Shown: in pieces, positions 5,467-32,550 of the stretch
Layout of the letters: the number at the start of each line of letters is the position of its first letter
Numbering within the stretch: the first letter of the stretch is position 1
Assembly: GCA_965218285.1 (NCBI GenBank)
Contig: OZ244616.1
Coordinates: 5,635,757-5,699,756, forward strand
DNA length: 64,000 bases
Direction of reading: 5' to 3'
From: Candidatus Poribacteria bacterium
GTDB lineage: Bacteria > Poribacteria > WGA-4E > WGA-3G
Program-made: the position numbers and the translations under genes
The notes under the pieces: model-generated
Seen by the model: only the letters and a program-made list of their open reading frames with translations
The model's database searches: none
Told to the model about the DNA's origin: nothing

Positions 5467-6594
5467 TTAGTTAAAGACAATAACGCCACGGGCATTTTCA
5501 CCGGCTTCCATATCCGCAAACGCCTCATTAATCTGATCAAGTTGATAATGTTTTGTGATCAGTTCATCTAACTTCAACTTCCCTTCCGTATATAGATTAA
5601 GAAGTTTCGGCATATCCACCCGGGGTTGACATGAACCGTAGAACGAACCGATTATCTGCCTTTCAGATGCGACGAAGTGTTGCGCTGGAATGCTGAATTC
5701 CATTTCATGGTGTGCCATTCCAACAATTACCGCAGTGCCAGCAGCGCGCACCATACGATATGCTTGAACGATAGTTTTCGGATTGCCGATGACTTCAAAA
5801 GCATAATCTACGCCGCGACCATCGGTTAATTCACGAACCGCTTCAATAGGATCACATTCAGCAGCGTTGACGACATCCGTAGCACCAAAACGTTTGGCAA
5901 AGTCAAGTTTTTTCTGAGCAATATCAACAGCGATAATCTTTTCTGCTTGTGCAAGCACAGCACCTTGAATGGCATTTAAACCTACACCGCCGGTTCCAAT
6001 AATCGCTACAGAACTACCGGGTTCCACCTTCGCTGTATTGAGAACTGCACCAACACCTGTTGTCACACCACATCCGACAAGCGCAGCTTGCGCTAACGAA
6101 TAATGATTATCTATTTTGACGAGGTTTTGTTGTGGCACGACCATATATTCCGACATCGTTGCAATCCGTGTCATCTGAAGGATACCCTCACCCGATTTGT
6201 TATATAAGCGATAAGTGCCATCTAATTGAAACCCGCGAGGTACATCGTAACTTTCGCAAAGGCAGACTTTCTCCATCTGACACATGTGGCAATCACCGCA
6301 ATATGTGACGAAGGATAGAATTACATGGTCACCCGGTTGGAAATCTGCTACATCCTCACCTACACGTTCAATTATACCTGCGCCTTCGTGTCCGAGTACG
6401 ACAGCAGCATCGTAGTAGATAGCACCCGTAACGACCGATAGATCAGAGTGGCACACACCACTTGCAGCAGTACGGACAAGGACTTCATTGGCTTTCGGTT
6501 CTTCTAAGTCCAGTTCCTCAACAACCACAGGTTGATTATGTTCATACATAACAGCGGCGCGTGTTTTCATCACTCTTCGGACTGGAGACCCCAT
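5467..6594 (-). CDS. zinc-dependent alcohol dehydrogenase family oxidoreductase. True start probably MKTRAAV near 6570.
   Basis: GHEGAGIIERVGEDV zinc-ADH signature, structural-zinc cysteines (CGDCHMC), GTGGVGL Rossmann motif. The first 8 codons of the listed ORF are supplied by an IS-derived repeat. Confidence 0.75.
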   Translation of the reverse strand: MGSPVRRVMKTRAAVMYEHNQPVVVEELDLEEPKANEVLVRTAASGVCHSDLSVVTGAIYYDAAVVLGHEGAGIIERVGEDVADFQPGDHVILSFVTYCGDCHMCQMEKVCLCESYDVPRGFQLDGTYRLYNKSGEGILQMTRIATMSEYMVVPQQNLVKIDNHYSLAQAALVGCGVTTGVGAVLNTAKVEPGSSVAIIGTGGVGLNAIQGAVLAQAEKIIAVDIAQKKLDFAKRFGATDVVNAAECDPIEAVRELTDGRGVDYAFEVIGNPKTIVQAYRMVRAAGTAVIVGMAHHEMEFSIPAQHFVASERQIIGSFYGSCQPRVDMPKLLNLYTEGKLKLDELITKHYQLDQINEAFADMEAGENARGVIVFN

Positions 6595-6908
6595 CCTTTA
6601 GGTTGGGGAGGAAAGCCCGCTCCTTTTATTTTTGGTATTAGGAGTTTAGTTTCCAATCAAATATAACTGAAAACTAAATCCCTAATATGCACAAACATAA
6701 GTTTGCGTTCTCCCTTTCGGGGTGTCTGTTGCCCCATCCAGATCACAGTATCCGAGAGGAATCGGACTTGGGGAGCATCCGAAACATCGTGCTGGCTACC
6801 ACGCCAAGATACTGCGATATTTTACTGTAGTCAACGGTTTAACTTGTGAAGTGGACGCTCGGATTGCGCTTTGCACAAGCCCCATGCTTTAGCTTGGGGT
6901 TATTGACC
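6568..6908 (-). mobile_element. ORF-less IsrB-type element: RE repeat (6568-6624) plus omegaRNA module (about 6715-6908), with no isrB gene
   Basis: 6568-6624 matches 14918-14973 (catcactcttcgg.ctggagaccccatcctttaggttggggaggaaagcccgctcc). 6722-6908 aligns almost base-for-base with 16000-16190, the region between the IsrB start codon and the LE terminus ...ccccatgctttagcttggggttattgac. Confidence 0.55.
6715..6908 (-). ncRNA. orphan IscB/IsrB-type omegaRNA scaffold copy
   Basis: Near-identity to the 5' UTR module of the intact isrB at 15977-16190. Confidence 0.4.
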
Positions 6909-6963: not shown

Positions 6964-8055
6964 TTATACGGTTTGCAAGTTACTCATAGATAGTAACCAG
7001 GGTTCATCTACCAAAGCACGCAGGAATATCCCGCGTGCGCCATTCAAGTCTCTGTTCATCTTGAGTCCTGTGCTATCTTTGATTATCTTTCGTCCGCCGA
7101 GTGATTTTCTAATCTCACCATTCCAAGAAACTGTTTTTGATGTGTATGCTTCACAGACATCAACTACAATACATCCAGTTTCTTCTGCTTTATGTTTTAG
7201 AAATTGTTTGAATCTGTAGTGAGATAGTGTCAACATTTGTCTTGCAGACTTTTTTCGTAGTTTGCGTTTTCCACGCATCACCATATCTGAAGTCTCAAAT
7301 GTGGGGAGCAAGATAATATCAAAGTTATCAACAAGGTATCGTGCAACTTTATGGTGCAATTCATCAACAAGATTTCTGATACGTGTGCGTATTCTGTTTG
7401 CAGCACGTCTCATATTCTTGCGTGATTGTTGAGTCGCTTTTGTTGCATGGGATAAAAGATTATCAAGGTGTGAACAAAGTCTTTGAATCCGATTAATAGC
7501 ATGGTGTCCAAGCCATCCGAAACCACGCTCATGAAAATATGTGAGGAATGTTCTCACGCCAAGGTCTAAAGCAACAACACGTCCGTTTGACTTTCGCTTC
7601 GGAGTTGTCACAGTATAAGATACACATAGATAGTATTTATCATTCTCTTTTACCAGTCGGGAGTCACAGATATTATCAGGTAACATCTCTGACATCTTTA
7701 GCTCACCAAGTAAGGTATGATAGACACCGCGTGGTTTTATAGCAGACTTTGGAATGAAAATACTATCTGATGGATGACGTTTAGACTTGAAAGAAACAGA
7801 TTGAAACTCACCTGTTTTCTTACATTTTCGCTTTGCTTCTCTGACAGCAATAGACTTTATCTGATACGGAGTTTCTTTGCTCCAATCAGGTAGATCGTGA
7901 AGAATGCCTGTTTTTATCGCTTTCCAATTTGCTTTTGTGTCTGTTTCGTTCAACAAAGCAACGGTTTTATCGAGTTTCGGTGTCAAAACCCAATGCTTTA
8001 GCTTTGGGATGTAGACACCGCCCTCTTGTATTAGACCAAAACTTTTTCTTGACAT
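6964..8055 (-). CDS. tnpB: TnpB-like RuvC-fold nuclease (IS200/IS605/IS607 accessory protein). N-terminus probably disrupted; the annotated first ~25 codons run through another element's left end.
   Basis: RuvC-I VVALDLGVRTF, RuvC-II LLPTFETSDM, C-terminal ..CEAYTSKT..NRDLNGARGIF (RuvC-III D.N.A..I motif) with a degenerate zinc finger. The -35 box of an opposite-strand promoter overlaps the annotated ATG. Confidence 0.65.
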   Translation of the reverse strand: MSRKSFGLIQEGGVYIPKLKHWVLTPKLDKTVALLNETDTKANWKAIKTGILHDLPDWSKETPYQIKSIAVREAKRKCKKTGEFQSVSFKSKRHPSDSIFIPKSAIKPRGVYHTLLGELKMSEMLPDNICDSRLVKENDKYYLCVSYTVTTPKRKSNGRVVALDLGVRTFLTYFHERGFGWLGHHAINRIQRLCSHLDNLLSHATKATQQSRKNMRRAANRIRTRIRNLVDELHHKVARYLVDNFDIILLPTFETSDMVMRGKRKLRKKSARQMLTLSHYRFKQFLKHKAEETGCIVVDVCEAYTSKTVSWNGEIRKSLGGRKIIKDSTGLKMNRDLNGARGIFLRALVDEPWLLSMSNLQTV

Positions 8056-10095: not shown

Positions 10096-10320
10096 CATTC
10101 ATCACTCTTCGGGCTGGAGACCTTATCCTTTAGGTTGGGGAGGAAAGCCCGCCTCCTTTTGTTAATAAGTGCAGGTGATTTAATCTTGCACCTGCTACGA
10201 GATGTCTGTGTTGGGTATCGCCCAGACGACGCGACCTGTAGTCAACTGTTTAACTTGTGGAGTGGACGCTTGGTATGCGCTTCGCACAAGCCCCATGCTT
10301 TAGTTTGGGGTTATTGACTC
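10096..10320 (-). mobile_element. truncated ORF-less IsrB-type element (RE repeat plus about 85 nt of the omegaRNA 5' region plus LE terminus)
   Basis: 10096-10150 matches the RE repeat. 10237-10318 matches 16105-16190 (ctgtagt.caac.gtttaacttgtggagtg.acgcttggtatgcgcttcgcacaagccccatgctttag.ttggggttattgac). Confidence 0.5.
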
Positions 10321-10740
10321 TAATCCTTCTAACGCCTTTTGAATAATTTCACTATGATCAAAGGCAAGTTGTGGCAAGCCTGATGTTGAAAACCATGCAA
10401 CTTCCGAGGCATCGGAGCCCGCTACGGTTTTCTGTTGTTCCGATTTAATGATTCCAACGTAGGCGACGGTGATAACACGTCCACGTGGATCACGGTCAGG
10501 ATGTCCAAATGTCCCTATCTGTGTCAATTGCACTTCAGATATACCTGTTTCCTCATGCAACTCGCGAAGAGCACTCTCCTTAAGAGTTTCATCCATTTCC
10601 AGAAACCCACCTGGCAATGCCCACAAGTCTTTGAAAGGTGGATTCTTACGACGAATTAATAAGACTTGTGGATGCAGTGCATCCATCAATAGTACAACAT
10701 CAACAGTAACTGAGGGACGTGGATAATCATAACAATACAC
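10300..10740 (-). CDS. NUDIX hydrolase
   Basis: Nudix box GG.LE..E....A..REL.EETGI (ALPGGFLEMDETLKESALRELHEETGI). The last 5 codons and the stop are supplied by the terminus of the adjacent IS-derived element. Confidence 0.75.
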   Translation of the reverse strand: MYCYDYPRPSVTVDVVLLMDALHPQVLLIRRKNPPFKDLWALPGGFLEMDETLKESALRELHEETGISEVQLTQIGTFGHPDRDPRGRVITVAYVGIIKSEQQKTVAGSDASEVAWFSTSGLPQLAFDHSEIIQKALEGLESITPN

Positions 10741-14597: not shown

Positions 14598-14947
14598 ATA
14601 AAACGCACTTACTTTTTACATGAGCCTGATTTTTTACTATAGACTTATTATTCTTCGGCACACAACGTATGCATGCTAATCGTTATAGAAAACCCACAAT
14701 CATTCTTATGATGTGGTAGATGCCGAATTCTAAAAGCGTATCTGCTGTTAATTCACCACGCGTTTCCCTACCGAATAATCTATTCGTGTAACGTTTCTTC
14801 AAAGACTTCAAGGTTTTGTGCCTGAGCTGCATCGAGGAGCAGCTGTTCCAGGCGTTGCAAATCTTCTATGTTTTGAAGTGCCGGTGTTAAGGCATTCACG
14901 GCTTCTACATGGAATTTCATCACTCTTCGGGCTGGAGACCCCATCCT

Positions 14948-15976
14948 TTAGGTTGGGGAGGAAAGCCCGCTCCTATAGTTAAAATTCAGACGCGTAAGAA
15001 CTTTGAAATCCTGTCGTTTCGCGCCTGTGGTGATTCGTTTCCCATCCAAACTGTAGATAGAAAACAAACCTTTTGCGTTAATACCTGAAAGTCTTGTTAA
15101 TCCGTGTTTGACATGCTTCACCAAAGTGTTCTTGACCAAGCCTTGTGCTAATATGGTGCCACCATATCGCGAACGAATGCCGTTCTTTTGTGGGTTCTGC
15201 CGATGAAGTTCACGTCTTGAAACAGGTATCGGTGCGATGCAGAATATATCTGTGTTGTCGGGGACATCCACCCCACCGACAGTGTGATATGCCAAACACC
15301 AACTATCTACACAGTGTGCATCAAACGTCTCTGTGAGTTTCTTGAAAGACTTCTTGAGTCCAAGTCTATCTCGAAGTTCTTTCGTCTCCCAACCTTGAAG
15401 TGTGAACAATGTCCATCGCTTTTGTATCTCACTATAGAACCAAGACTTTCCGACTTCAAGAGGACTGAAAGAACTATTCCACTTTTTCGCACGTTTGATA
15501 GTCCTTGCTCTAATATCCTCTACACAGACATGTGTGACAGGATACATATTAGACAACCAATCCAAAATACGCAGTTTCCAATCCCATCTCGCACGCGTGC
15601 CAGCCGGTATCCTTTCTTTATTAGCAGGGTGCCGATTAGTTCGGTTCTTTCGGTTTGGACACGAACGACTCCGACGGGTTCTCCGAAGTTCGCGACGCTT
15701 TTCTATTTTTTTACCCACTTTGCTATGTGCATCAGTTTGAACATTCAAATACGTGTGTGCCTCAGACTTCACCGTGAACCCTTCTTTCTTGCTGCCAGGG
15801 TCTACACCTACAGCAATCTCTTGTTTGTATTCTGTTGTTTCGTAGTTTAATCGAATACAGAAGATACCATTATTCCAATACGGGGTCGCCTTACCACTTT
15901 TGATAAGGTGCCTCGCAACTGGCGGAGAAGTGGGCATCAGTTGTTCACCATCCTTAGATTTCACTGGAACGAACAT
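14948..15976 (-). CDS. isrB: IsrB: RNA-guided RuvC nuclease/nickase of the IscB family lacking the HNH insert (342 aa)
   Basis: N-terminal PLMP domain (KSKDGEQLMPTSPPVARHLIKSGKA). RuvC-I AVGVDPGSKKEGFTV. Arg-rich bridge helix KRRELRRTRRSRS. RuvC-II CVEDIRARTIKRA. RuvC-III DAHCVDSWCLAY. No HNH/Cys4 segment. Size typical of IsrB. Confidence 0.7.
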   Translation of the reverse strand: MFVPVKSKDGEQLMPTSPPVARHLIKSGKATPYWNNGIFCIRLNYETTEYKQEIAVGVDPGSKKEGFTVKSEAHTYLNVQTDAHSKVGKKIEKRRELRRTRRSRSCPNRKNRTNRHPANKERIPAGTRARWDWKLRILDWLSNMYPVTHVCVEDIRARTIKRAKKWNSSFSPLEVGKSWFYSEIQKRWTLFTLQGWETKELRDRLGLKKSFKKLTETFDAHCVDSWCLAYHTVGGVDVPDNTDIFCIAPIPVSRRELHRQNPQKNGIRSRYGGTILAQGLVKNTLVKHVKHGLTRLSGINAKGLFSIYSLDGKRITTGAKRQDFKVLTRLNFNYRSGLSSPT

Positions 15977-16190
15977 GTCGTTAGAACTCCTTTTCAGGGT
16001 ATGTGTTTCCCCATCCAGATCACAGTATCCGAGAGGGATCGGACTTGGGGGGCATCCGAAACATCGTGCTGGCTACCACGCCAAGATACCACGATATATT
16101 ACTGTAGTACAACGGTTTAACTTGTGGAGTGAACGCTTGGTATGCGCTTCGCACAAGCCCCATGCTTTAGCTTGGGGTTATTGACCTTCA
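15977..16190 (-). ncRNA. IsrB omegaRNA (5' of isrB, same strand). Guide segment expected immediately beyond 16190.
   Basis: About 215-nt conserved structured module between the LE terminus and the start codon. Copied without the ORF at 6715-6908, 10237-10320 and 30635-30800. Confidence 0.5.
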
Positions 16191-16411
16191 ATAATGTTAA
16201 GATGGACTTAATCGTAGCATCCCTCGCCCCTTGGGTGATGAATTCTTCGCGTAGAAGTTGGTAATATTTAGATTCACGCATAAACTCCTCCGGTATGATG
16301 GTGCTTCGGAAGAACTCCCTATATCCTCTGATAAGGAGGATATAGGGGGTTGGAAACTGATAAAGGGTCTATGACCAACGATCCGACAATTCTATAGTTT
16401 CGAATTTGAAA

Positions 16412-19400
16412 CTACTGATTTGCTTGGACAATTTCCGCGTGTGTTTTACCGAAATAGGAGGCAACCTGAACGAGGTCAAGGATATTTACCTCACCATCCA
16501 TGTTCACATCGCCAGAAAGTCCTTCGCCAGATTCGCCGAATTGGTTTGCAACCGCAACCAAATCCAAGATATTCACCGTGCCATCTGCATTGAGATCCCA
16601 CGGCACTGGTTCAATCGTAGTATTAGTTGTAAGTTCAGCAGTTTTCGTGCTATCACCTTGCGAAGTTGCCGTAACTTTGGTTTCATATTCACCTGGTTTT
16701 GTGAAGAAATCACCTGCTGCTGTAAATATAACTTCAGCAGAAGCACCGGCAGCAAGCATAATTTCCAACTGACTTGTAGTAGGTTCCTGATCGGCAGATT
16801 CACTGAATGATCCAAGGACGCTACCTTCAATGCCTACTTCAGCAGAAGATCCAAGCACTACCGTATCTTCTGTGTTACCGGTGTTTGTCACTGTGAGGGT
16901 ATAACTGACACCTGCAAGCATATCCATCGTTGCGCCTTTGAGTTCACCTTCACTTTGCAACGTAACGCCGTAAACAGGGAGAATAGTTGTCTTTGTTGAA
17001 ACCTCCGCAGTTTTCGTGCTATCGCCTTGCGAAGTAGCCGTGACTTTGATTTCATATTCACCTGGTTTTGTGAAGAAATCACCTGCTGCTGTAAATATAA
17101 CTTCAGCAGAAGCACCGGCAGCAAGCATAATCTCCAACTGATTTGTAGTAGGTTCCTGATCGTCAGATTGGCTGAATGAACCAAGAACACTCCCTTCAAT
17201 CCCAAACTCTGCAGAAGATCCAAGCACTACCGTATCTTCTGTATTACCGGTGTTTGTCACTGTGAGGGTATAACTGACACCTGCAAGCATATCCATCGTT
17301 GTGCCTGTGAGTTCACCTTCACCTGTCAATGTAACACCATAAACAGGGAGAATAGTCGTGTTCGTTGAAATCACAGCAGTTTTCTTGCTATCACCTTGCG
17401 AAGTTGCTGTAACTTTGATTTCATATTCACCTGGTTTTGTGAAGAAATCACCTGCTGCTGTAAATATAACTTCAGCAGAAGCACCGGCAGCAAGTATAAT
17501 CTCCAACTGACTTGTAGTAGGTTCCTGATCGGCAGATTGGCTGAACGAACCAAGAACACTCCCTTCAATCCCAAACTCTGCAGAAGATCCAAGCACTACC
17601 GTATCTTCTGTATTACCGGTGTTTGTCACTGTGAGGGTATAACTGACACCTGCAAGCATATCCATCGTTGCGCCTTTGAGTTCACCTTCACTTTGCAACG
17701 TAACGCCGTAAACAGGGAAAACAGGGAGAATAGTTGTCTTTGTTGAAACCTCAGCAGTTTTCTCGGTATCGCCTTGCGAAGTAGCCGTAACTTTGATTTC
17801 ATATTCACCTGGTTTTGTGAAGAAATCACCTGCTGCTGTAAATATAACTTCAGCAGAAGCACCGGCAGCAAGCATAATCTCCAACTGATTTGTAGTAGGT
17901 TCCTGATCGGCAGATTCACTGAATGATCCAAGGACGCTACCTCCAATGCCTACTTCAGCAGAAGATCCAAGCACTACCGTATCGTCTGTATTACCGGTGT
18001 TTGTCACTGTGAGGGTATAACTGACACCTGCAAGCATATCCATCGTTGTGCCTTTGAGTTCACCTTCACCTGTCAATGTAACACCGTAAACAGGGAGAAT
18101 AGTCGTGTTTGTTGAAACCTCAGCAGTTTTCGTGCTATCACCTTGCGAAGTTGCCGTAACTTTGGTTTCATATTCACCTGGTTTTGTGAAGAAATCACCT
18201 GCTGCTGTAAATATAACTTCAGCAGAAGCACCGGCAGCAAGCATAATTTCCAACTGACTTGTAGTAGGTTCCTGATCGTCAGATTCACTGAACGAACCGA
18301 GAACACTCCCTCCAATCCCAAACTCTGCAGAAGATCCAAGCACTACCGTATCTTCTGTATTACCGGTGTTTGTCACTGTGAGGGTATAACTGACACCTGC
18401 AAGCATATCCATCGTTGCGCCTTTGAGTTCACCTTCACTTTGCAACGTAACGCCGTAAACAGGAAGAATAGTTGTCTTTGTTGAAATCACAGCAGTTTTC
18501 GTTTTATCGACTTGTGAGGTTGCTGTAACGTTAACTTCGTACTGACCAGCAATCGCAAGGTCATCACCGGAAATCGTTAATATTATTTCTGCTGAAGCCC
18601 CCGCGGCAAGCGATACAACGGTCTGACTTAAGGTAGCAGCATCACCTGACGTTGTTAAATCTATCACGTCATCTGTGTTACTAATATTTGTGATTTTGAG
18701 GGTATAACTGACACCTTCCCTTGCATCAGATGTCTCGGTGGTCAAGACTCCTACGCCAACTAACGTAACACCATGAACAGGAAGAATAGTTGTGGTCGTT
18801 GAGACCGCAGCCGTTTTCGTGTTATCTCCCTGTGAGGTAGCTGTAACTTTGACTTCATAATCCCCTGCAGTTGTAAGCACAGCATCGGAAACAGTCAATG
18901 TCACTTCAGTTGAAGCACCCGCGGCAAGCGAGACAGATGTTTCACTTAAGGTCGCTGTGGCATCGCCTGACGTTGATAAATCTACAACGTCATCTGTGTT
19001 GCCGGTGTTCGCGATGGTGAGCATATAACTGATACCTTCACTTGCATCAGATATTTTAGTAGTCAACTCATCTACACCTGCTAACGTAACACCATAAACA
19101 GGGAGAATAGTTGTGTTCGTTGAAATCACAGCAGTTTTCGTTTTATCGACTTGTGAGGTTGCTGTAATCTTAACTTCGTAGTTGCCTGCTGTCGCAAGGG
19201 CATCACCAGAAAGCGTTATTGTTACTTCCGCAGAAGCACCCGCAGCAAGCGACACAGATGTCTGACTCAAGATAGCAGCATCATCTGATGATGTTAAATC
19301 AATGACGTCATCTGTATTCCCAGTGTTCGTGGCGGTGAGCATATAACTGACGCCTTCACTTGCATCAGTTGTTTCACTGGTCAATTCACCTACGCCTGCT

Positions 19401-22400
19401 AACGTAACACCATAAATCGGGAGAATAGTTGTTTGGGTTGTGACCTCAGCCGTTTTCTCCTCATCCCCTTGTGAGGTTGCTGTAACGTTAACTTCGTAGT
19501 TGCCTGCTGTCGCAAGGGCATCACCAGAAAGCGTTATTGTTACTTCCGTAGAAGCACCTCCGGCAAGCGACACGGATGCCTGACTCAATGTAGCAGCATC
19601 ATTTGATGATGTTAAATCAATGACGTCATCTGTATTCCCCGTGTTCGTGGCGGTGAGCATATAACTGACACCTTCCCTTGCATCAGATGTCTCGGTGGTC
19701 AAGACTCCTATGCCAACTAACGTAACACCATGAACAGGAAGAATAGTTGTGGTCGTTGAGACCGCAGCCGTTTTCGTGTTATCTCCCTGTGAGGTAGCTG
19801 TAACTTTGACTTCATAATCCCCTGCAGTTGTAAGCACAGCATCGGAAACAGTCAATGTCACTTCAGTTGAAGCACCCGCGGCAAGCGAGACAGATGTTTC
19901 ACTTAAGGTCGCTGTGGCATCGCCTGACGTTGATAAATCTACAACGTCATCTGTGTTGCCGGTGTTCGCGATGGTGAGCATATAACTGATACCTTCACTT
20001 GCATCAGATATTTTAGTAGTCAACTCATCTACACCTGCCAACGTAACACCATAAACAGGAAGAATAGTCGTTTGGGTTGTGACCTCAGCAGTTTTCTCCT
20101 CATCCCCTTGTGAGGTTGCTGTAACGTTAACTTCGTAGTTGCCTGCTGTCGCAAGGGCATCACCAGAAAGCGTTATTGTTACTTCCGTAGAAGCACCTCC
20201 GGCAAGCGACACGGATGCCTGACTCAATGTAGCAGCATCATTTGATGATGTTAAATTGATGACGTCATCTGTGTTTCCAGTGTTCGTTATGGTGAGCGTA
20301 TAGGTGACACCTTTACTTGCATCAGATGTTTCGGTCATCAAATCGCCTACACTTGCCAACGTGACACCGTAAACAGGAAGAATAGTCGTGGTTGTTGTAA
20401 CCACAGACGACATCGTGCTATCGCCTTGCGAGGTAGCGGTAACCGTAACTTCGTAGTCCCCCGCTGTCGCGAGGTCATCACCGGAAGTCGTTATCGTTAC
20501 TTCCGCAGAAGCACCTGCAGCAAGCGAGACAGAAGTCTGACTCAATGTAGCAGCATCATTTGATGATGTTAAATTGATGACGTCATCTGTGTTTCCAGTG
20601 TTCGTGGCGGTGAGCATATAACTGATGCCTTCACTTGCATCAGATGTTTTACTGGTCAATTCACCTACGCCTGCTAACGTAACACCGTAAACAGGAAGAA
20701 TCTTCGTGTTCGTTGAGACTTCTGACGACATCGTGTTATCGCCTTGCGAGGTAGCGGTAACCGTAACTTCGTAGTCCCCCGCTGTCGCGAGGTCATCACC
20801 GGAAGTCGTTATCGTTACTTCCGCAGAGGCACCCGCAGCAAGCGACACAGATGTCTGACTCAAGATAGCAGCATCATCTGACGTTGTTAAATCAATGACG
20901 TCATCTGTGTTGCCGGTGTTCGTGGCGGTGAGCATATAACTGATACCTTCACTTGCATCAGATGTTTTAGTAGTCAACTCATCTACACCTGCCAAGGTAA
21001 CGCCATAAACAGGGAGAATAGTCGTGGTCGTTGAGACCTCAGCCGTTTTCTCCTCGTCCCCTTGCGATGTCGCGGTAACCTTGACTTCATAATCGCCCGC
21101 TGTCGCGAGGTCATCACCAGAAATCGTTATTGTCACTTCCGCAGAAGCACCTGCAGCAAGCGACACAGAAGTCTGACTCAATGTAGCAGCATCACCTGAC
21201 GTTGTTAAATCTATCACGTCATCTGTGTTGCCGGTGTTCGTGACGGTAAGCATATAACTGACACCTTCACTTGCATCAGATGTTTCAGTGGTCAACTCAC
21301 CCACACCGGCTAATGTAACGCCGTAAACAGGGAGAATAGTTGTCTTTGTTGAAACCTCCGCAGTTTTCGTGCTATCGCCTTGCGAAGTAGCCGTGACTTT
21401 GATTTCATATTCACCTGGTTTTGTGAAGAAATCACCTGCTGCTGTAAATATAACTTCAGCAGAAGCACCGGCAGCAAGCATAATCTCCAACTGACTTGTA
21501 GTAGGTTCCTGATCGTCAGATTGGCTGAACGAACCAAGAACACTCCCTTCAATCCCAAACCCTGCAGAAGATCCAAGCACTACCGTATCTTCTGTATTAC
21601 CGGTGTTTGTCACTGTGAGGGTATAACTGACACCTGCAAGCATATCCATCGTTGCGCCTTTGAGTTCACCTTCACTTTGCAACGTAACGCCGTAAACAGG
21701 GAGAATAGTTGTCTTTGTTGAAACCTCCGCAGTTTTCGTGCTATCGCCTTGCGAAGTAGCCGTGACTTTGATTTCATATTCACCTGGTTTTGTGAAGAAA
21801 TCACCTGCTGCTGTAAATATAACTTCAGCAGAAGCACCGGCAGCAAGCATAATCTCCAACTGACTTGTAGTAGGTTCCTGATCGTCAGATTGGCTGAACG
21901 AACCGAGAACACTCCCTTCAATCCCAAACTCAGCAGAAGATCCAAGCACTACCGTATCTTCTGTATTACCGGTGTTTGTCACTGTGAGGGTATAACTGAC
22001 ACCTGCAAGCATATCCATCGTTGCGCCTTTGAGTTCACCTTCACTTTGCAACGTAACGCCATAAACAGGGAGAATAGTTGTGTTCGTTGAAATCACAGCA
22101 GTTTTCGTTTTATCGACTTGCGAGGTTGCTGTAATCTTAACTTCGTAGTCACCTGCTGTCGCAAGGGCATCACCGGAAGTCGTTATCGTTACTTCCGCAG
22201 AAGCACCTGCAGCAAGCGAGACAGAAGTCTGACTCAATGTAGCAGCATCATTTGATGATGTTAAATTGATGACGTCATCTGTGTTTCCAGTGTTCGTTAT
22301 GGTGAGCGTATAGGTGACACCTTCACTTGCATCAGATGTTTCGGTCATCAAATCGCCTATACTTGCCAACGTGACACCGTAAACAGGAAGAATAGTCGTG

Positions 22401-25378
22401 GTTGTTGTAACCACAGACGACATCGTGCTATCGCCTTGCGAGGTAGCGGTAACCGTAACTTCGTAGTCCCCCGCTGTCGCGAGGTCATCACCGGAAGTCG
22501 TTATCGTTACTTCCGCAGAGGCACCCGCAGCAAGCGACACAGATGTCTGACTCAAGATAGCAGCATCATCTGACGTTGTTAAATCTATCACGTCATCTGT
22601 GTTGCCGGTGTTCGTGACGGTAAGCATATAACTGACACCTTCACTTGCATCAGATGTTTCAGTGGTCAACTCACCCACACCGGCTAATGTAACGCCGTAA
22701 ACAGGGAGAATAGTTGTCTTTGTTGAAACCTCCGCAGTTTTCGTGCTATCGCCTTGCGAAGTAGCCGTGACTTTGATTTCATATTCACCTGGTTTTGTGA
22801 AGAAATCACCTGCTGCTGTAAATATAACTTCAGCAGAAGCACCGGCAGCAAGCATAATCTCCAACTGACTTGTAGTAGGTTCCTGATCGTCAGATTGGCT
22901 GAACGAACCAAGAACACTCCCTTCAATCCCAAACCCTGCAGAAGATCCAAGCACTACCGTATCTTCTGTATTACCGGTGTTTGTCACTGTGAGGGTATAA
23001 CTGACACCTGCAAGCATATCCATCGTTGCGCCTTTGAGTTCACCTTCACTTTGCAACGTAACGCCGTAAACAGGAAGAATAGTTGTCTTTGTTGAAACCT
23101 CAGCAGTTTTCTCGGTATCGCCTTGCGAAGTAGCCGTGACTTTGATTTCATATTCACCTGGTTTTGTGAAGAAATCACCTGCTGCTGTAAATATAACTTC
23201 AGCAGAAGCACCGGCAGCAAGCATAATTTCCAACTGACTTGTAGTAGGTTCCTGATCGTCAGATTGGCTGAACGAACCGAGAACACTCCCTTCAATCCCA
23301 AACTCAGCAGAAGATCCAAGCACTACCGTATCTTCTGTATTACCGGTGTTTGTCACTGTGAGGGTATAACTGACACCTGCAAGCATATCCATCGTTGCGC
23401 CTTTGAGTTCACCTTCACTTTGCAACGTAACGCCGTAAACAGGGAGAATAGTTGTCTTTGTTGAAACCTCCGCAGTTTTCGTGCTATCGCCTTGCGAAGT
23501 AGCCGTGACTTTGATTTCATATTCACCTGGTTTTGTGAAGAAATCACCTGCTGCTGTAAATATAACTTCAGCAGAAGCACCGGCAGCAAGCATAATTTCC
23601 AACTGACTTGTAGTAGGTTCCTGATCGTCAGATTGGCTGAACGAACCGAGAACACTCCCTTCAATCCCAAACCCTGTAGAAGATCCAAGCACTACCGTAT
23701 CTTCTGTATTACCGGTGTTTGTCACTGTGAGGGTATAACTGACACCTGCAAGCATATCCATCGTTGCGCCTTTGAGTTCACCTTCACTTTGCAACGTAAC
23801 GCCGTAAACAGGGAGAATAGTTGTCTTTGTTGAAACCTCCGCAGTTTTCTCGGTATCGCCTTGCGAGGTTGCTGTGACTTTGATTTCATATTCACCTGGT
23901 TTTGTGAAGAAATCACCTGCTGCTGTAAATATAACTTCAGCAGAAGCACCGGCAGCAAGCATAATCTCCAACTGACTTGTAGTAGGTTCCTGATCGTCAG
24001 ATTGGCTGAACGAACCGAGAACACTCCCTTCAATCCCAAACCCTGTAGAAGATCCAAGCACTACCGTATCGTCTGTATTACCGGTGTTTGTCACTGTGAG
24101 GGTATAACTGACACCTGCAAGCATATCCATCGTTGCGCCTTTGAGTTCACCTTCACTTTGCAACGTAACGCCGTAAACAGGGAGAATAGTCGTTGTGGTC
24201 GTGATTTCAGCGGTCTTTGCGTTATCGCCTTGCGAGGTTGCTGTGACTTTTGCCGCATAATCACCAGCAGTGGCAAGCGAAGAACCGGGGATCGTCAATA
24301 CGACATTCTCTGAAGCACCTGCAGCGAGCGGGACAGAAGTTTTGTTTAATGTAGCTTTAGCGATGCCCGATACTGCTAAACTTATCTTATCGCTTGTATT
24401 CCCGGTGTTTGTGACTCGGAGGGTATACTTCATTCCACCACTTGCATCTGTCGTTTCGGTTGTCAAGTCACTTACCCCTGTTAACGTAACCTCATAAACA
24501 GGAGGAACAGTCGTTGTGGTCGTAACTTCTGCAGTTTTCGTGCTATCTCCCTGGGAGGTTGCCTTAACCTTGACTTCATAATCGCCTGCTGTTGTCAAAA
24601 CATTACCGGAAACGGTCAATGTTACGTTCCTTGCAGCACCTGCATCAAGCGGGACAGTGGTTGGACTTAGGGTAGCAGAAGCATCGCCTGAAGTACTCAA
24701 ATTTATCGTATCGTTTGTATTACCGGTATTTGTGACCTTGAGTGTATATGTGACTGCAGCACTTGCATCTGTTGTTTGGGTTGTCAAAGAGCCTACGCCG
24801 GCTAACATAACACCGTAAACAGGAACTTCTGATGTGTTACTTTGGGTATAGATGTAATCACCCGATGTGCGAAAATCGCCATTTGCAGCGTTTCCTGTAG
24901 CATAAAACGTAATAGGTCCCACATCATTAGTAGGGGCAGTCCATTTAAACGTCCACTGGTTTTTGTCTCTTGTTCCGCTTGCACTTCCTTGAGTAGTCTG
25001 CTTAATATATTGTTTACTGTTTGCTGCTGTAACCTGTGTATTCCCATTATTCGCTGGAGTAAAGGTGCCAGCACGTGCGCCATTGCCGTTCAGCGCGGTC
25101 ATCTCAAATCCCCATCGACTTTGCCCGGAACGTGATAAATCAACAACAATATCATACATCTCACCCGGCAAATAGGTTCTAGGGACTCCTAACATCAGTG
25201 AACCACCTGCAGCGTTCAGATCGTTGCCGACGTGGCAGTTTTTACAGGTGCCTTCACCGGGAGCTTCAGTTAGTCCATCTGGTGGACCACTAGAAAAAGC
25301 AAATACACTGCTGTTGCTTGCAGCAAAAAAGAACACCATTACACTGCAAATAGAAAAGATTTTTTTCAGATAATTCAA
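16412..25378 (-). CDS. giant secreted repeat protein (2988 aa). Signal peptide, then an N-terminal about 170-aa domain with a CxxCH motif (PSCyt1-like). Then about 25 tandem CARDB/DUF11-like Ig-fold repeats of two subtypes (about 100 and 115 aa). C-terminal type-I dockerin.
   Basis: SP MNYLKKIFSICSVMVFFFAASNSSVFA. Motif GTCKNCHVG....GGSLML. Repeat consensus PVYGVTL..G.L....SDAS.GVSYTLTVTNTGNTDD...L.....A.LS..SVSLAAGAS.EVT.T.SGD.L.TAG.YEV.VTATSQ. C-terminal DLNADGTVNILDLVAVANQFG ... DVNMDGEVNILDLVQVASYFG (duplicated calcium-binding dockerin segments). Confidence 0.8.
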   Translation of the reverse strand: MNYLKKIFSICSVMVFFFAASNSSVFAFSSGPPDGLTEAPGEGTCKNCHVGNDLNAAGGSLMLGVPRTYLPGEMYDIVVDLSRSGQSRWGFEMTALNGNGARAGTFTPANNGNTQVTAANSKQYIKQTTQGSASGTRDKNQWTFKWTAPTNDVGPITFYATGNAANGDFRTSGDYIYTQSNTSEVPVYGVMLAGVGSLTTQTTDASAAVTYTLKVTNTGNTNDTINLSTSGDASATLSPTTVPLDAGAARNVTLTVSGNVLTTAGDYEVKVKATSQGDSTKTAEVTTTTTVPPVYEVTLTGVSDLTTETTDASGGMKYTLRVTNTGNTSDKISLAVSGIAKATLNKTSVPLAAGASENVVLTIPGSSLATAGDYAAKVTATSQGDNAKTAEITTTTTILPVYGVTLQSEGELKGATMDMLAGVSYTLTVTNTGNTDDTVVLGSSTGFGIEGSVLGSFSQSDDQEPTTSQLEIMLAAGASAEVIFTAAGDFFTKPGEYEIKVTATSQGDTEKTAEVSTKTTILPVYGVTLQSEGELKGATMDMLAGVSYTLTVTNTGNTEDTVVLGSSTGFGIEGSVLGSFSQSDDQEPTTSQLEIMLAAGASAEVIFTAAGDFFTKPGEYEIKVTATSQGDSTKTAEVSTKTTILPVYGVTLQSEGELKGATMDMLAGVSYTLTVTNTGNTEDTVVLGSSAEFGIEGSVLGSFSQSDDQEPTTSQLEIMLAAGASAEVIFTAAGDFFTKPGEYEIKVTATSQGDTEKTAEVSTKTTILPVYGVTLQSEGELKGATMDMLAGVSYTLTVTNTGNTEDTVVLGSSAGFGIEGSVLGSFSQSDDQEPTTSQLEIMLAAGASAEVIFTAAGDFFTKPGEYEIKVTATSQGDSTKTAEVSTKTTILPVYGVTLAGVGELTTETSDASEGVSYMLTVTNTGNTDDVIDLTTSDDAAILSQTSVSLAAGASAEVTITTSGDDLATAGDYEVTVTATSQGDSTMSSVVTTTTTILPVYGVTLASIGDLMTETSDASEGVTYTLTITNTGNTDDVINLTSSNDAATLSQTSVSLAAGASAEVTITTSGDALATAGDYEVKITATSQVDKTKTAVISTNTTILPVYGVTLQSEGELKGATMDMLAGVSYTLTVTNTGNTEDTVVLGSSAEFGIEGSVLGSFSQSDDQEPTTSQLEIMLAAGASAEVIFTAAGDFFTKPGEYEIKVTATSQGDSTKTAEVSTKTTILPVYGVTLQSEGELKGATMDMLAGVSYTLTVTNTGNTEDTVVLGSSAGFGIEGSVLGSFSQSDDQEPTTSQLEIMLAAGASAEVIFTAAGDFFTKPGEYEIKVTATSQGDSTKTAEVSTKTTILPVYGVTLAGVGELTTETSDASEGVSYMLTVTNTGNTDDVIDLTTSGDAATLSQTSVSLAAGASAEVTITISGDDLATAGDYEVKVTATSQGDEEKTAEVSTTTTILPVYGVTLAGVDELTTKTSDASEGISYMLTATNTGNTDDVIDLTTSDDAAILSQTSVSLAAGASAEVTITTSGDDLATAGDYEVTVTATSQGDNTMSSEVSTNTKILPVYGVTLAGVGELTSKTSDASEGISYMLTATNTGNTDDVINLTSSNDAATLSQTSVSLAAGASAEVTITTSGDDLATAGDYEVTVTATSQGDSTMSSVVTTTTTILPVYGVTLASVGDLMTETSDASKGVTYTLTITNTGNTDDVINLTSSNDAATLSQASVSLAGGASTEVTITLSGDALATAGNYEVNVTATSQGDEEKTAEVTTQTTILPVYGVTLAGVDELTTKISDASEGISYMLTIANTGNTDDVVDLSTSGDATATLSETSVSLAAGASTEVTLTVSDAVLTTAGDYEVKVTATSQGDNTKTAAVSTTTTILPVHGVTLVGIGVLTTETSDAREGVSYMLTATNTGNTDDVIDLTSSNDAATLSQASVSLAGGASTEVTITLSGDALATAGNYEVNVTATSQGDEEKTAEVTTQTTILPIYGVTLAGVGELTSETTDASEGVSYMLTATNTGNTDDVIDLTSSDDAAILSQTSVSLAAGASAEVTITLSGDALATAGNYEVKITATSQVDKTKTAVISTNTTILPVYGVTLAGVDELTTKISDASEGISYMLTIANTGNTDDVVDLSTSGDATATLSETSVSLAAGASTEVTLTVSDAVLTTAGDYEVKVTATSQGDNTKTAAVSTTTTILPVHGVTLVGVGVLTTETSDAREGVSYTLKITNISNTDDVIDLTTSGDAATLSQTVVSLAAGASAEIILTISGDDLAIAGQYEVNVTATSQVDKTKTAVISTKTTILPVYGVTLQSEGELKGATMDMLAGVSYTLTVTNTGNTEDTVVLGSSAEFGIGGSVLGSFSESDDQEPTTSQLEIMLAAGASAEVIFTAAGDFFTKPGEYETKVTATSQGDSTKTAEVSTNTTILPVYGVTLTGEGELKGTTMDMLAGVSYTLTVTNTGNTDDTVVLGSSAEVGIGGSVLGSFSESADQEPTTNQLEIMLAAGASAEVIFTAAGDFFTKPGEYEIKVTATSQGDTEKTAEVSTKTTILPVFPVYGVTLQSEGELKGATMDMLAGVSYTLTVTNTGNTEDTVVLGSSAEFGIEGSVLGSFSQSADQEPTTSQLEIILAAGASAEVIFTAAGDFFTKPGEYEIKVTATSQGDSKKTAVISTNTTILPVYGVTLTGEGELTGTTMDMLAGVSYTLTVTNTGNTEDTVVLGSSAEFGIEGSVLGSFSQSDDQEPTTNQLEIMLAAGASAEVIFTAAGDFFTKPGEYEIKVTATSQGDSTKTAEVSTKTTILPVYGVTLQSEGELKGATMDMLAGVSYTLTVTNTGNTEDTVVLGSSAEVGIEGSVLGSFSESADQEPTTSQLEIMLAAGASAEVIFTAAGDFFTKPGEYETKVTATSQGDSTKTAELTTNTTIEPVPWDLNADGTVNILDLVAVANQFGESGEGLSGDVNMDGEVNILDLVQVASYFGKTHAEIVQANQ
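16860..24230. repeat. intragenic tandem repeats, about 300-345 nt units, many copies more than 95% identical at nucleotide level (e.g. 21310-21576 equals 22684-22950)
   Basis: Identical antisense ORF artefacts recur every about 340/370 nt in the ORF track. Direct sequence comparison confirms this. Confidence 0.85.
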
Positions 25379-25496: not shown

Positions 25497-28205
25497 TTAT
25501 TTTAGGATGACCATTCGACGGGTAGCAGAGAAATACTGAGTTTGGAGGGCATAGAAATAGATGCCGCTCGAAACATGTTCACCTGCTGTATTTTTACCAT
25601 CCCAATAAGCAGCACTGGAGTTTGTCGTGTATGCGCCAGTTGACTTATGACCGAGATTTAGCGTCCGAACCGAATGACCGGAAACATCAAAAATCTGAAT
25701 CGTTACGTTGGAACCGCGATTCAGTTGATAAGGTATCCAAGTCTCAGGGTTGAACGGGTTCGGGAAGTTTTGTCCTAGCATGGTTTCTTTAGGACGCACA
25801 TCGCCAACACGCATCTGGACACTCATAAATGCATTGTGAATATCCGTAGTTTGGACTGTGCGTTGGAACGGACCGGACACAATAGTGCCACGTTCGTCAA
25901 GAAGTGCGATCTCAACTTTATCACCGGCTTCGACAACACTCTTATGATTTAGGTCTGCCCATACAGCAGAGACGTATCCATCTTCGCTTGAAACTTTCTC
26001 GGTTGTCGTAACGCCTGTGCGGATGTTTTTGGCAACCATGGTGTAAGACGCACCAGTCTCTTTATTCTGTAAGTCGCTGGCAACTATAAACGCCCAAGCA
26101 CTCTTAGTTGCAGAGATCTTAGGTGCTGCAGCTGCGCTTTCCGTAGGCATTTCAGCCGGTTCGTTTGACCACGCAGTACCAGAAAACGTTACCGTTCCAC
26201 CTGCAGGTGTATTGACAATATATCCCTTTCCACCTTCAATACCAAAATTGTAGCCACCTTCAATACCAGCAACATAACCAACGAAACTCTGCGTTGCTGC
26301 ATTTAACTTGATGACAACTGTCGAACCTAACATATCGGCAAGAGATTGTGCAGTGTAAGGTTCTGCAGGCATTAACGGAACAGAAATCATGTTCAATCCC
26401 GCTTCAAGTGTGACATCATAGGTAGGTAGCGGTGGTGGTGGTTCTACTGGCACTACTTCCGGTGCTGGGACATAAGGTGCGATCATCAGCATTGCTGTCG
26501 GTTCTGTCCAAGCAAAAGATGCAGCAACATCACCAACACCTTGGATACCAGCGTGATGTGTAATTACGCCACCTTCTGTGGGAACACGTGCATTGCTACC
26601 CATCGGGTCTTCATCCGCAGGTAAACCGACTGGACCGGGAATATCAGTCCCGCGCTCGGTATTCTGTTCACTACCTGCGTCGTAAGATCTGAGTTCCAAA
26701 GTCGTTGAAATCGGCATACCTGCTTCATCAAAGAGTGCTAAGTCTGTAGTCCCGATGAATGCATCATTTGTTGAGACCAACATTGTCGCAAGAGAAAGCG
26801 CAGAGTTCATCGCATCTGCTGTTAACATAACCGTGACTGAAGCACCGGGTAAGACCATGCCTTCTCCGACAGTACTGTTTGCGCCTGCAGCTACTGTGAG
26901 TGCGGCGAGCCCTGAGACATCTCCACCTTCAGCAAGCGCGACAAGAGCAGCATTAGCGGGTTGACCGACTTCGTAGAGCTTGATACCTGCAGCATGCGTT
27001 GCAAAGATTGGTGGTGAGAAGATTTGTCCACCCATTCCCGGTTCACCTGTGGTGAGGTTGGTCAGGGTAATACTGAATATTTGTGGTTCGGGAACAACGG
27101 GTTCAGGCACTACGACATCATCCACTGGAGGTGTATCATCTGCCGGAGGCGTATCATCTGCCGGAGGTGTGTCATCCGCAGGTGGCGTGTCATCTGCTGG
27201 AGGCGTATCATCCGCAGGTGGCGTGTCATCTGCCGGAGGTGTGTCATCCGCAGGTGGTGTGTCATCTGCCGGAGGTGTGTCATCCGCAGGTGGTGTGTCA
27301 TCTGCTGGAGGCGTATCATCCGCAGGTGGTGTGTCATCCGCAGGAGGCGTATCATCCGCAGGTGGCGTGTCATCTGCCGGAGGCGTATCATCCGCAGGTG
27401 GCGTGTCATCCGCAGGTGGCGTGTCATCTGCTGGAGGCGTATCATCCGCAGGTGGTGTGTCATCTGCCGGAGGCGTATCATCCGCAGGTGGCGTGTCATC
27501 TGCCGGTGGTGTGTCATCCGCAGGTGGTGTGTCATCTGCCGGAGGTGTGTCATCCGCAGGTGGTGTGTCATCTGCCGGTGGTGTGTCATCCGCAGGTGGT
27601 GTGTCATCTGCCGGAGGTGTGTCATCCGCAGGTGGTGTGTCATCTGCCGGAGGCGTATCATCCGCAGGTGGTGTGTCATCTGCCGGAGGTGTGTCATCTG
27701 CCGGAGGCGTATCATCCGCAGTGGGAACAGTAACCGATCCATCTGCAGTTGTACTTTCCAAAGCACTTCCGCCGGCACCGGAGATAAGTACATCTGTCAA
27801 GGTAATAGCGGACGCTTTTACCTCAACGACTTCAAACGTTACCGTAGCGAGAGTGTGATCACCATCCGGTGCATTACCGAATGCGTAAAATTCAACTTTA
27901 TTCTCAGATATAGTAACAGGGTCAACACCGGGAAGTGCAGGCTTAGGAAGATACTCTCCATAAGCAATAGAAACATAACTGAGAGCAGTTGAATCAAAAT
28001 TTACATCAACTTCGTAGCCTGCGACACCTGCGCCACCCGCGATATTAATATTCACGGTGAGTTGTTCCCCGACTGCCGGGGATTCAATCGTAGCGGGATC
28101 AACAGAAACGGTGGCTGCACCGTAACTCATCGCTGTCCATCCCAATAACATTACAACAGCCATTAAGGAAAATAGTATATTCCTATTGAAAAGCTGGTTT
28201 TTCAT
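25497..28205 (-). CDS. secreted modular surface protein: signal peptide, cohesin-like domain, (DDTPPA)x35 linker, Spondin_N-like domain, beta-sandwich region, T9SS C-terminal sorting domain (Por_Secre_tail)
   Basis: SP MKNQLFNRNILFSLMAVVMLLGWTAMSYGAA. Cohesin-like ..GYEVDVNFDSTALSYVSIAYGEYLP...ENKVEFYAFGN...TLATVTFEVVEVKA. Spondin_N-like FSITLTN.T..Q.FSPP..ATH..G..LYE.GQPA..AL..LAEGG...L...TND.F.G. C-terminal FPNPFNP.T.I.Y.L......IQIFD..G..V..L....WDG.N..GE.VSSGIYFY. Confidence 0.7.
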   Translation of the reverse strand: MKNQLFNRNILFSLMAVVMLLGWTAMSYGAATVSVDPATIESPAVGEQLTVNINIAGGAGVAGYEVDVNFDSTALSYVSIAYGEYLPKPALPGVDPVTISENKVEFYAFGNAPDGDHTLATVTFEVVEVKASAITLTDVLISGAGGSALESTTADGSVTVPTADDTPPADDTPPADDTPPADDTPPADDTPPADDTPPADDTPPADDTPPADDTPPADDTPPADDTPPADDTPPADDTPPADDTPPADDTPPADDTPPADDTPPADDTPPADDTPPADDTPPADDTPPADDTPPADDTPPADDTPPADDTPPADDTPPADDTPPADDTPPADDTPPADDTPPADDTPPADDTPPADDTPPVDDVVVPEPVVPEPQIFSITLTNLTTGEPGMGGQIFSPPIFATHAAGIKLYEVGQPANAALVALAEGGDVSGLAALTVAAGANSTVGEGMVLPGASVTVMLTADAMNSALSLATMLVSTNDAFIGTTDLALFDEAGMPISTTLELRSYDAGSEQNTERGTDIPGPVGLPADEDPMGSNARVPTEGGVITHHAGIQGVGDVAASFAWTEPTAMLMIAPYVPAPEVVPVEPPPPLPTYDVTLEAGLNMISVPLMPAEPYTAQSLADMLGSTVVIKLNAATQSFVGYVAGIEGGYNFGIEGGKGYIVNTPAGGTVTFSGTAWSNEPAEMPTESAAAAPKISATKSAWAFIVASDLQNKETGASYTMVAKNIRTGVTTTEKVSSEDGYVSAVWADLNHKSVVEAGDKVEIALLDERGTIVSGPFQRTVQTTDIHNAFMSVQMRVGDVRPKETMLGQNFPNPFNPETWIPYQLNRGSNVTIQIFDVSGHSVRTLNLGHKSTGAYTTNSSAAYWDGKNTAGEHVSSGIYFYALQTQYFSATRRMVILK
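27122..27720 (-). repeat. 18-bp tandem repeat x about 34 (encodes DDTPPA hexapeptide linker)
   Basis: ggaggcgtatcatctgcc / ggtggtgtgtcatccgca periodicity read directly. Only synonymous third-position variation. Confidence 0.85.
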
Positions 28206-29884: not shown

Positions 29885-29939
29885 CAGGTGTGTTCATATA
29901 TTAATTTTGGCTATATATTATTAACGTGTGTGACAAAAT

Positions 29940-30608: not shown

Positions 30609-30634
30609 TAGAATATGATATAATTACCACTAAA

Positions 30635-32441: not shown

Positions 32442-32550
32442 CGCGCCTCTTTTCAAGTCAACATTCCATGAAAATCGGGCGGACAAAGCCTTCCTACCAT
32501 TTTTGCTTCGGCAAAGTCAATATGCGAAAACCGACAGATAGAGTTATGAA

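Follow-up and report, generated by a model that had tools for sequence, protein, structure and literature searches.

A predicted HNH-less IsrB transposon with an omegaRNA scaffold in its 5' leader, and its gene-less copies, in Candidatus Poribacteria

A 64,000-nt stretch of contig OZ244616.1 from a Candidatus Poribacteria bacterium (GenBank assembly GCA_965218285.1, positions 5,635,757 to 5,699,756 of the forward strand; hereafter 'the window') contains a minus-strand gene, isrB, which had been noticed in an earlier reading made from the letters alone (the sequence-only reading). We conclude, with a probability of about 0.88, that this locus is a 1265-bp non-autonomous ISC1-type transposon of the IS200/IS605 superfamily, carrying an intact isrB and an omegaRNA scaffold in its 5' leader. 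The locus had been described as complete. This holds for the nuclease-plus-guide unit and not for the transposon, as no TnpA transposase gene was found in the window. All positions below are those of the window.

Results

A full-length IsrB homologue without an HNH domain

The isrB open reading frame (ORF) encodes 342 aa in the order PLMP domain, RuvC-I, bridge helix, RuvC-II, a short linker at the HNH position, RuvC-III and a predicted target-adjacent motif (TAM)-interacting (TI) domain. The motifs from which the sequence-only reading had recognised an HNH-less IsrB were all present: GEQLMPTSP (LMP at residues 13-15), VGVDPGS (D59), the Arg-rich KRRELRRTRRSRSCPNRKNRTNR, CVEDIR (E153) and DAHCVD (H221 and D224). 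L13, M14 and P15 are conserved, and the first Pro of PLMP is replaced by Gln (QLMP). D59, E153, H221 and D224 do not vary across 37 aligned homologues, and they align with the VDPG, TEDVR and THANDA motifs of IsrB from Desulfovirgula thermocuniculi (DtIsrB). A catalytic role for these four residues is predicted from the RuvC motifs of Cas9 and IscB.

The sole Pfam match was RRXRR (PF14239; E-value 3.7e-30, 105 bits, residues 3-157), which is the N-terminal module of IscB and IsrB, and no HNH profile was matched. The linker between E153 and H221, colinear with the HNH-linker region of DtIsrB, is 67 residues long and has neither Cys nor His, and hence no HNH finger. DtIsrB (PDB 8dmb) was the best solved relative, clear of the others (E-value 1.4e-36), and it is colinear with the ORF over residues 3-316, with 33% identity across 311 aligned residues and 10 gap positions. 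IscB structure chains aligned with the N-terminal 110-166 residues only. The NCBIfam model guided_IscB likewise covered only residues 5-156, scoring 94 bits against a cut-off of 175. The bridge helix that follows RuvC-I (KRRELRRTRRSRS) aligns with DtIsrB TRRNLRRARRYRK. In the C-terminal TAM-interacting region the alignment extends to residue 316 and keeps the GKRI motif, which holds R314, the equivalent of DtIsrB R323; the last 26 residues are unaligned. On these alignments the ORF is a full-length IsrB homologue with predicted intact RuvC residues and no HNH domain.

Database searches returned 3198 homologous proteins at an E-value of at most 1e-3 and 118 relatives among species-representative genomes, with homologue lengths of 339-355 aa. 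The subfamily of the window IsrB is multi-copy in many Poribacteria genomes, and the view that such systems are rare was not borne out. Many copies with 96-99% protein identity share single 6-Mb contigs, which points to recent spread. In a codon alignment with paralogues, the ratio of nonsynonymous to synonymous substitution rates (dN/dS) was 0.16-0.18 at a dS of ~0.48, and at most 0.09 for deeper pairs, indicating that IsrB is under purifying selection.

A covarying RNA scaffold and its predicted guide

The conserved module upstream of isrB is real, although it is somewhat shorter than the 215 nt first given: it begins at G16185 (GTCAATAACCCC...) and reaches the ATG at 15976 after 209 nt. The predicted scaffold is made up of S1 (the guide-adaptor stem), SL1, SL2, one long-range stem, a pair of inner hairpins, the adaptor and nexus pseudoknots, and one hairpin each for the Shine-Dalgarno (SD) sequence and the start codon. 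The transposon hairpin is SL1, CCCCAAGC-UAAA-GCAUGGGG.

No Rfam family was matched at gathering thresholds in the whole 64-kb window. In a permissive search, all 211 model positions of HEARO (RF02033) aligned with 15925-16185 on the minus strand at 28.4 bits (E-value 6.6e-4); a 15-bit cut-off for such RNAs has also been used by Meers et al. (bioRxiv 10.1101/2023.03.14.532601). The expected likeness to published RNA family models was thus found along the full length of HEARO, at a score well short of its 83-bit gathering score.

To evaluate the structure by covariation, 80 related loci (L001-L080), several per genome, were taken from species-representative genomes; 79 of them are titled Poribacteria and L038 is titled 'uncultured bacterium'. 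The 66 distinct leaders were aligned with MAFFT and a structure of 56 pairs was drawn by hand, with slid pairing partners and 500 shuffles as controls. RNAalifold alone recovered 28 pairs and missed S1 and SL2. The start-codon hairpin was not countable by column, owing to MAFFT register shifts between subfamilies. In the hand-drawn structure, 91.4% of the cells pair, compared with 31-42% for slid partners, and compensatory changes occur in 33 of the 56 pairs. The covariation score was 0.335, whereas slid controls gave at most 0.073 and none of the shuffles reached the observed value. This structure includes the nexus pseudoknot, with five pairs (CCCCA/UGGGG), and the SD hairpin. The second pseudoknot, the adaptor, joins the SL2 loop with the loop of the first inner hairpin and is 86% paired, with one pair being AU in 31 and GC in 21 of the sequences. 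The comparative evidence indicates that the structure of the leader RNA is conserved and covarying, and that it has the stems and both pseudoknots expected of IsrB omegaRNAs, in agreement with the 5' omegaRNA originally proposed.

The guide is predicted to be encoded directly 5' of the scaffold, a placement that follows PMC9581776 and Meers et al. (bioRxiv 10.1101/2023.03.14.532601), and its length is put at 16-20 nt from published IsrB and IscB guides. The flank at 16186-16205 is unique in the window, and what lies 5' of the scaffold is different from copy to copy. On the minus strand, the part of the element upstream of the scaffold showed no promoter-like site.

Boundaries of the element and its insertion site

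The edges of the element are sharp. Likeness among the four copies of the window and 52 parsed Poribacteria loci stops at GTCAAT... at one edge and immediately ahead of NTGA at the opposite one, and the size across the element family is 1256-1303 bp. End parsing covered 52 of 81 loci, and the TAM and start-codon statistics refer to that subset. All copies share the GTCAAT... start on their 5' side (GTCAGT... or GTAAAG... in subfamilies) and are all different upstream of it; this places the scaffold start at G16185, with the guide expected from 16186 upward. The final tetranucleotide conserved on the opposite side is, by comparative inference, ATGA in 46, GTGA in 3 and ATGG in 3 of the 52 loci, and the few bases preceding it vary among subfamilies. 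Because conservation closes with this tetranucleotide, and because it matches published TAMs and targets, we place the element at 14921-16185 and regard ATGA at 14917-14920 as host target (Table 1). The published IsrB TAMs NTGA, NTG and NTGG (PMC9581776) agree with the junction tetranucleotides found here, and the N|ATGA target and 5'-GTCA terminus of ISC1-1_MA (PMC4810608) agree with the element. These limits replace those of the sequence-only reading, which had given the locus as 14918-16190 and sought the guide beyond 16190; 16186 onward is flank and the TAM lies on the far side of the element. The use of GTGA as TAM, with the element ending in ...GAAGA, was considered and rejected, as conservation extends through ATGA in every subfamily and the alternative would add one residue relative to intact host homologues.

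Both ends are subterminal imperfect hairpins, and there are no terminal inverted repeats and no target-site duplication. The TAM-side end is predicted to fold into an outer stem, CGGGCU/AGCCCG, and an inner stem, CCCCAACC-UAAA-GGAUGGGG, that contains the isrB stop codon. Both stems covary between subfamilies, with the outer stem as CGGGCU/AGCCCG, CGGUGU/ACACCG or CGGAUU/AAUCCG among the window copy, L002, L027 and L044.

The element interrupts a small host ORF. Joining 16186 to 14920 restores an ORF of 78 aa that aligns without gaps across the junction with intact homologues of 55-65% identity. A look-up of a 46-aa fragment led to a contig (L082) with the same insertion, and a read-through fragment (P0138) indicates the same insertion in a 6.18-Mb genome. 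A precise insertion is suggested by the colinearity of the host ORF with its paralogues.

Table 1. Positions of the IsrB element, its parts, its insertion site and its gene-less copies in the window
Feature	Position	Strand	Size	Remarks
Whole non-autonomous IS200/IS605-superfamily (ISC1-type) element	14921-16185	minus	1265 bp	similarity limits among copies
isrB coding sequence	14948-15976	minus	342 aa	single ORF
omegaRNA scaffold (predicted)	15968-16185	minus	~218 nt	209 nt of it before the ATG at 15976
Guide-encoding flank (CCATCTTAACATTATTGAAG)	16186-16205	minus		predicted guide segment
TAM-side transposon end	14921-14973	minus		two-tier hairpin then AAGAGUG; conserved in all 4 window copies
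TAM, ATGA	14917-14920	minus		host target, outside the element
Interrupted host ORF, 5' part (MRESKYYQLL...ILTLLK)	16186-16281	minus		same orientation as isrB
Interrupted 78-aa host ORF, 3' part (MKFHVEAV...)	14780-14920	minus		from reconstructed-protein alignment
Mini A	6571-6907	minus	337 bp	ORF-less, both ends; TAM ATGA 6567-6570
Mini A guide-encoding flank (GTTAATATCATCGGTTAGTG)				predicted guide
Mini B	10103-10318	minus	216 bp	ORF-less, both ends; TAM ATGA 10099-10102
Mini C	30635-31052	plus	418 bp	ORF-less, both ends; TAM ATGA 31053-31056
Mini C guide-encoding flank (ATGATATAATTACCACTAAA)				predicted guide

Gene-less copies in the window

Searches with BLAST and nhmmer found exactly four copies of the scaffold module in the window, well above chance (nhmmer E-values 1e-22 to 1e-71): one with the gene at 16185 and three without it at 6907, 10318 and 30635. 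A shorter block just 3' of the isrB stop codon repeats at the same four places. Three further gene-less copies had been noted, and all three exist, although one of them (mini B) retains no more of the scaffold than its first ~85-105 nt, with S1, SL1 and SL2, and has lost the remainder. Each mini has its own flank and its own ATGA.

Mini A has 91.5% identity over 200 nt and a full-length HEARO match of 30.5 bits. Its scaffold is near-intact with compensatory changes present, and a 13-codon remnant of isrB is kept. Mini C is more diverged (82% identity, nhmmer E-value 1e-45); the scaffold helices and both pseudoknots are retained, several through compensatory changes, and the SD and start-codon hairpins are lost. 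From their sequences, the three minis are PATE-like derivatives of an already-described kind. In trans, minis A and C could provide IsrB with guides of their own, whereas mini B appears to be a mobilisable remnant only.

Some observations were made around these copies. A 363-aa TnpB (OrfB_IS605 and Cas12f1-like TNB) is encoded at 6964-8055 on the minus strand, in the orientation of mini A, with its end 56 nt upstream of that copy; among solved structures, the mimivirus TnpB-like protein L79 is the closest (9b0l, E-value 3e-18). The guide-encoding flank of mini A falls within the 3' tail of the tnpB region, the expected place of a TnpB omegaRNA. Mini B occupies the stop codon of a NUDIX gene (10300-10740, minus strand), which now runs six extra codons into mini B; the TGA of the TAM would be the original stop. 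In the 5' flank of mini C (30615-30634), TATAAT stands 9-14 nt ahead of the junction and an SD is absent, which hints at a leaderless or very short-leader transcript and hence a very short guide. A weak profile match (E-value 0.003) to the SL1/SL2 part of the scaffold, CCCACAGCCTAAAGGCTGGGGCTTGTGC, was found at 3428-3460 on the minus strand and may be a remnant or the end of a related element.

Mobility

A tblastn search with IS200 and IS608 TnpA queries found no Y1 TnpA in the window, and the element is therefore considered non-autonomous. The same search found none beside 79 of the 80 related loci and a single homologue, at L027 (5632-6018, E-value 4e-33). Absence of TnpA is usual for iscB and isrB elements, and the omegaRNA side corresponds to the transposase's right end (Meers et al., bioRxiv 10.1101/2023.03.14.532601). 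The end architecture at L027 agrees with the latter: the sequence just upstream of its TnpA (TCTTCGG...AAACCCCCAAGCTTTAGCTGGGGGA) has a CTTCGG-hairpin architecture like the reverse complement of the TAM-side end of the IsrB element. The segment 5470-6018 of L027 is a candidate autonomous partner, in a locus cut at the tnpA 3' end.

Insertion at host start codons

At 19 of the 52 parsed loci (37%), the junction is preceded at 5-16 nt by an SD motif in the 5' flank, and the ATG of the TAM opens an ORF of 100 codons or more; among the remaining ATGA sites of these loci the figure is 4.7%. The domains that Pfam assigns to the ORFs concerned start at profile position 1-3 and within the first 1-32 residues, and the families found comprise ArgJ, aconitase-family/LeuC-like, IF-2, MurJ, LarA_N, BatA and alcohol dehydrogenase (ADH). 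As the domains begin at the ORF starts, these ATGs are taken as true start codons, some of essential genes. Genes with an element between SD and ATG thus appear to include infB, murJ, a leuC-like gene and argJ. Minis A and C are placed likewise, with the ATG of the TAM being the start codon of a zinc-ADH gene and of an AP_endonuc_2-family gene, respectively.

In the window copy, L002, L027 and L044, the TAM-side end has a GGAG (or AAGG) immediately 5' of the foot of the covarying hairpin, and the ATG follows 7-10 nt 3' of the hairpin. GGAG also codes for conserved C-terminal residues of IsrB, which makes the constraint ambiguous. It is conceivable, although we consider it rather unlikely, that the TAM-side end serves as a portable translation-initiation module, in which folding of the hairpin bridges the SD to the start codon at a working distance. 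If so, the element would occupy transcribed 5' leaders without killing the gene, and the ribosome-binding region of the host would become the guide. Much of the enrichment could be explained by purifying selection that removes insertions within genes, combined with the dependence on transcription from outside. The insertion pattern may be new, and it bears on how guide-RNA transposons that are transcribed from outside coexist with essential host genes.

The argJ start codon is occupied by GTCAAT-type and GTAAAG-type elements in different Poribacteria genomes (L012 and L023 versus L027; junctions at ~3556 and ~3584), reflecting either an old insertion passed on by vertical descent or a site that has been used repeatedly.

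Discussion

Proposed mechanism and alternative explanations

We propose that transcription would enter from the interrupted host gene, which has the same orientation as isrB and is a likely source of read-through. In the resulting RNA, a guide of 16-20 nt, encoded from 16186 upward, would be fused to the ~218-nt scaffold as the leader folds, and IsrB would bind this guide-scaffold RNA. The complex would then recognise a match to the guide followed by ATGA, which is the scarless joint expected after excision of the element by a Y1 transposase acting in trans. Nicking of the non-target strand at this joint by IsrB could favour recombinational restoration of the element (restorative homing).

Several observations weigh against this proposal. 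The demonstrations of restorative homing concern TnpB and IscB, and not the nickase IsrB (PMC13565253), and expression and activity of the predicted element are extrapolated from its family. No TnpA accompanies the element in the window, and no empty site was recovered: a metagenome scan for the predicted joint, CATTATTGAAGATGAAATTCCA, returned one contig, where the match lies in an unrelated response-regulator gene and is due to chance. Nor did exact matches turn up for the neighbouring oxidoreductase, looked up with two start codons. An AlphaFold2 model built on the 37-sequence alignment was too poor to confirm the fold and was discarded (mean predicted local distance difference test score 54, predicted template modelling score 0.41). 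The scaffold is ~218 nt, compared with 262 nt in DtIsrB, and two of the five pairs of the adaptor pseudoknot are broken in mini A. Finally, the HEARO score is far under the gathering score and the RNA is not a curated HEARO member; it is therefore the covariation in the 66 related copies that carries the RNA evidence.

The locus might also be a recently dead relic, in which ORF and RNA look intact while RNA-guided nicking no longer takes place (for example, for lack of expression or of a guide) and copies persist through TnpA-driven spread. Such spread would be sufficient, as transposition requires only the ends and TnpA in trans (Meers et al.), and the negative search for a promoter-like site and the predicted status of the nickase activity are also compatible with it. 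This history is nevertheless improbable, since the protein is under apparent purifying selection even among the deeper pairs, the catalytic residues are invariant, and compensatory changes have kept ~200 nt of RNA structure, including pseudoknots for which TnpA has no need. Domestication as an IsrB-like host factor that is no longer mobile, such as an RNA-guided regulator, has precedents in TnpB relatives that are reported to have become transcription factors (PMC10705468). We give it very little credence here, where both transposon ends and the catalytic residues are intact, many near-identical copies occupy different sites per genome, and the window copy interrupts a host ORF.

Two further explanations concern the identity of the parts. 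The upstream module could be a single-stranded DNA end recognised by the transposase, followed by an ordinary 5' untranslated region, rather than a guide-RNA scaffold; SL1 is indeed the transposon hairpin and is dispensable for nicking by DtIsrB (PMC9581776), and DNA hairpins would also be expected to covary. However, IS200/IS605 ends require subterminal hairpins only, whereas the covariation seen here spans the whole 200 nt, including long-range stems and two pseudoknots that match published features of IsrB omegaRNAs, and the HEARO model aligns end to end, which makes this highly unlikely. An IscB identity for the protein, or that of some other Cas9-like protein whose HNH domain has diverged, would make it a double-strand nuclease instead of a nickase; this finds some encouragement in the guided_IscB model and the several IscB structures that match the N-terminal half. 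We assign it next to no probability, given that IscB-type matches end before RuvC-II with the NCBIfam score below its cut-off, that RuvC-II and RuvC-III are separated by a short stretch devoid of Cys and His, that the full length is colinear with the IsrB of 8dmb, and that the homologues are 339-355 aa long. We therefore retain the interpretation as a non-autonomous ISC1-type element with an intact isrB and its omegaRNA scaffold.

Other features of the window

Directly upstream of the interrupted small host ORF lies an ORF of 2988 aa (16412-25378, minus strand) composed of ~22 repeats of 106-123 aa; its N-terminus is signal-like, and a segment at the C-terminus (DVNMDGEVNILD) is dockerin-like. 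A tandem repeat of 36/108 nt (27118-27721; 16.6 copies of 36 nt, 91% matches) is located within a 902-aa ORF (25497-28205, minus strand), and a 40-bp tandem repeat (38996-39747; 18.7 copies, 95% matches) lies mostly between the ORFs 36779-38962 and 39754-40995. Palindromic units resembling repetitive extragenic palindromes (REP-like; GGTGCGGTTAGGAAACCGCACC, GTAGTCGCGCAATTCATTGCGCC) were observed at 45412-46526, 29684-29886, 41837-41957, 51134-51198, 32352-32442 and 4405-4446, arranged as composite tandem blocks of 169 and 236 bp and as dispersed copies. REP-like units are often mobilised by IS200/IS605-like Y1 transposases.

Comparison with known systems

The element is of the ISC1/IsrB kind that was defined in 2016 (PMC4810608) and characterised in 2021-2022; it is an already-known type and ordinary for its kind. 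The ten top-ranked papers retrieved by pairing Poribacteria with IsrB, IscB, TnpB or IS200 made no mention of Poribacteria. What is added here is a defined IsrB-omegaRNA family from sponge-associated, uncultured Candidatus Poribacteria, for which the ends, the TAM, the position of the guide and an RNA model backed by covariation are given. The picture of OMEGA systems as it stands is unchanged. The solved IsrB has a longer scaffold than the present one, whose shortness is of possible interest for compact nickases, and the window offers a natural test of whether IsrB uses guide RNAs of gene-less mini-elements in trans.

The closest characterised system is the DtIsrB-omegaRNA complex (PDB 8DMB; Hirano et al. 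2022, PMC9581776). Both proteins are ~350 aa long and share the order of PLMP, RuvC and bridge helix, the lack of HNH, and a TI domain (predicted here) with its R323/R314 counterparts, and both TAMs are of the NTGA type. The DtIsrB omegaRNA is likewise encoded in the 5' leader, with a transposon hairpin, the SD in the terminal hairpin, and adaptor and nexus pseudoknots (PMC9581776). On the other hand, protein identity is only 33%, PLMP reads QLMP here, and the TAM is ATGA instead of TTGA. The pseudoknot partners correspond to 'group A' of PMC9581776 (SL2 pairing with the first inner hairpin, and the region ahead of the SD hairpin with the second), whereas DtIsrB belongs to group B.

At the level of the transposon, the described features are most like those of ISC1-1_MA from Microcystis aeruginosa (Kapitonov et al. 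2016, PMC4810608), a single-gene element of ~1.3 kb, as here, encoding an HNH-less IscB1 (= IsrB). The 5'-GTCA terminus, subterminal hairpins, absence of target duplication, N|ATGA insertion and non-autonomy are shared, and the hosts differ, being Cyanobacteria for ISC1-1_MA and Poribacteria for the present element. IscB-HEARO systems (RF02033; OgeuIscB and others) have a PLMP/RRXRR N-terminus and RuvC-I homologous to those of the IsrB described here, and the HEARO model aligns as a whole with the RNA and has the same GUCAA...CCCC opening motif. They differ in that the present IsrB has no HNH domain and its RNAs score 28-30 bits compared with 83.

The minis resemble the PATE-like, ORF-less IS200/IS605 derivatives encoding omegaRNAs in G. 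stearothermophilus (Meers et al. 2023) in having both ends and no gene. Such omegaRNA elements require outside transcription (Meers et al.). Minis A and C also resemble the standalone omegaRNAs cited in PMC9581776 in keeping the scaffold, each with its own flank as predicted guide. Unlike the PATE-like elements, the minis derive from an IsrB element, and their use by IsrB in trans is putative.

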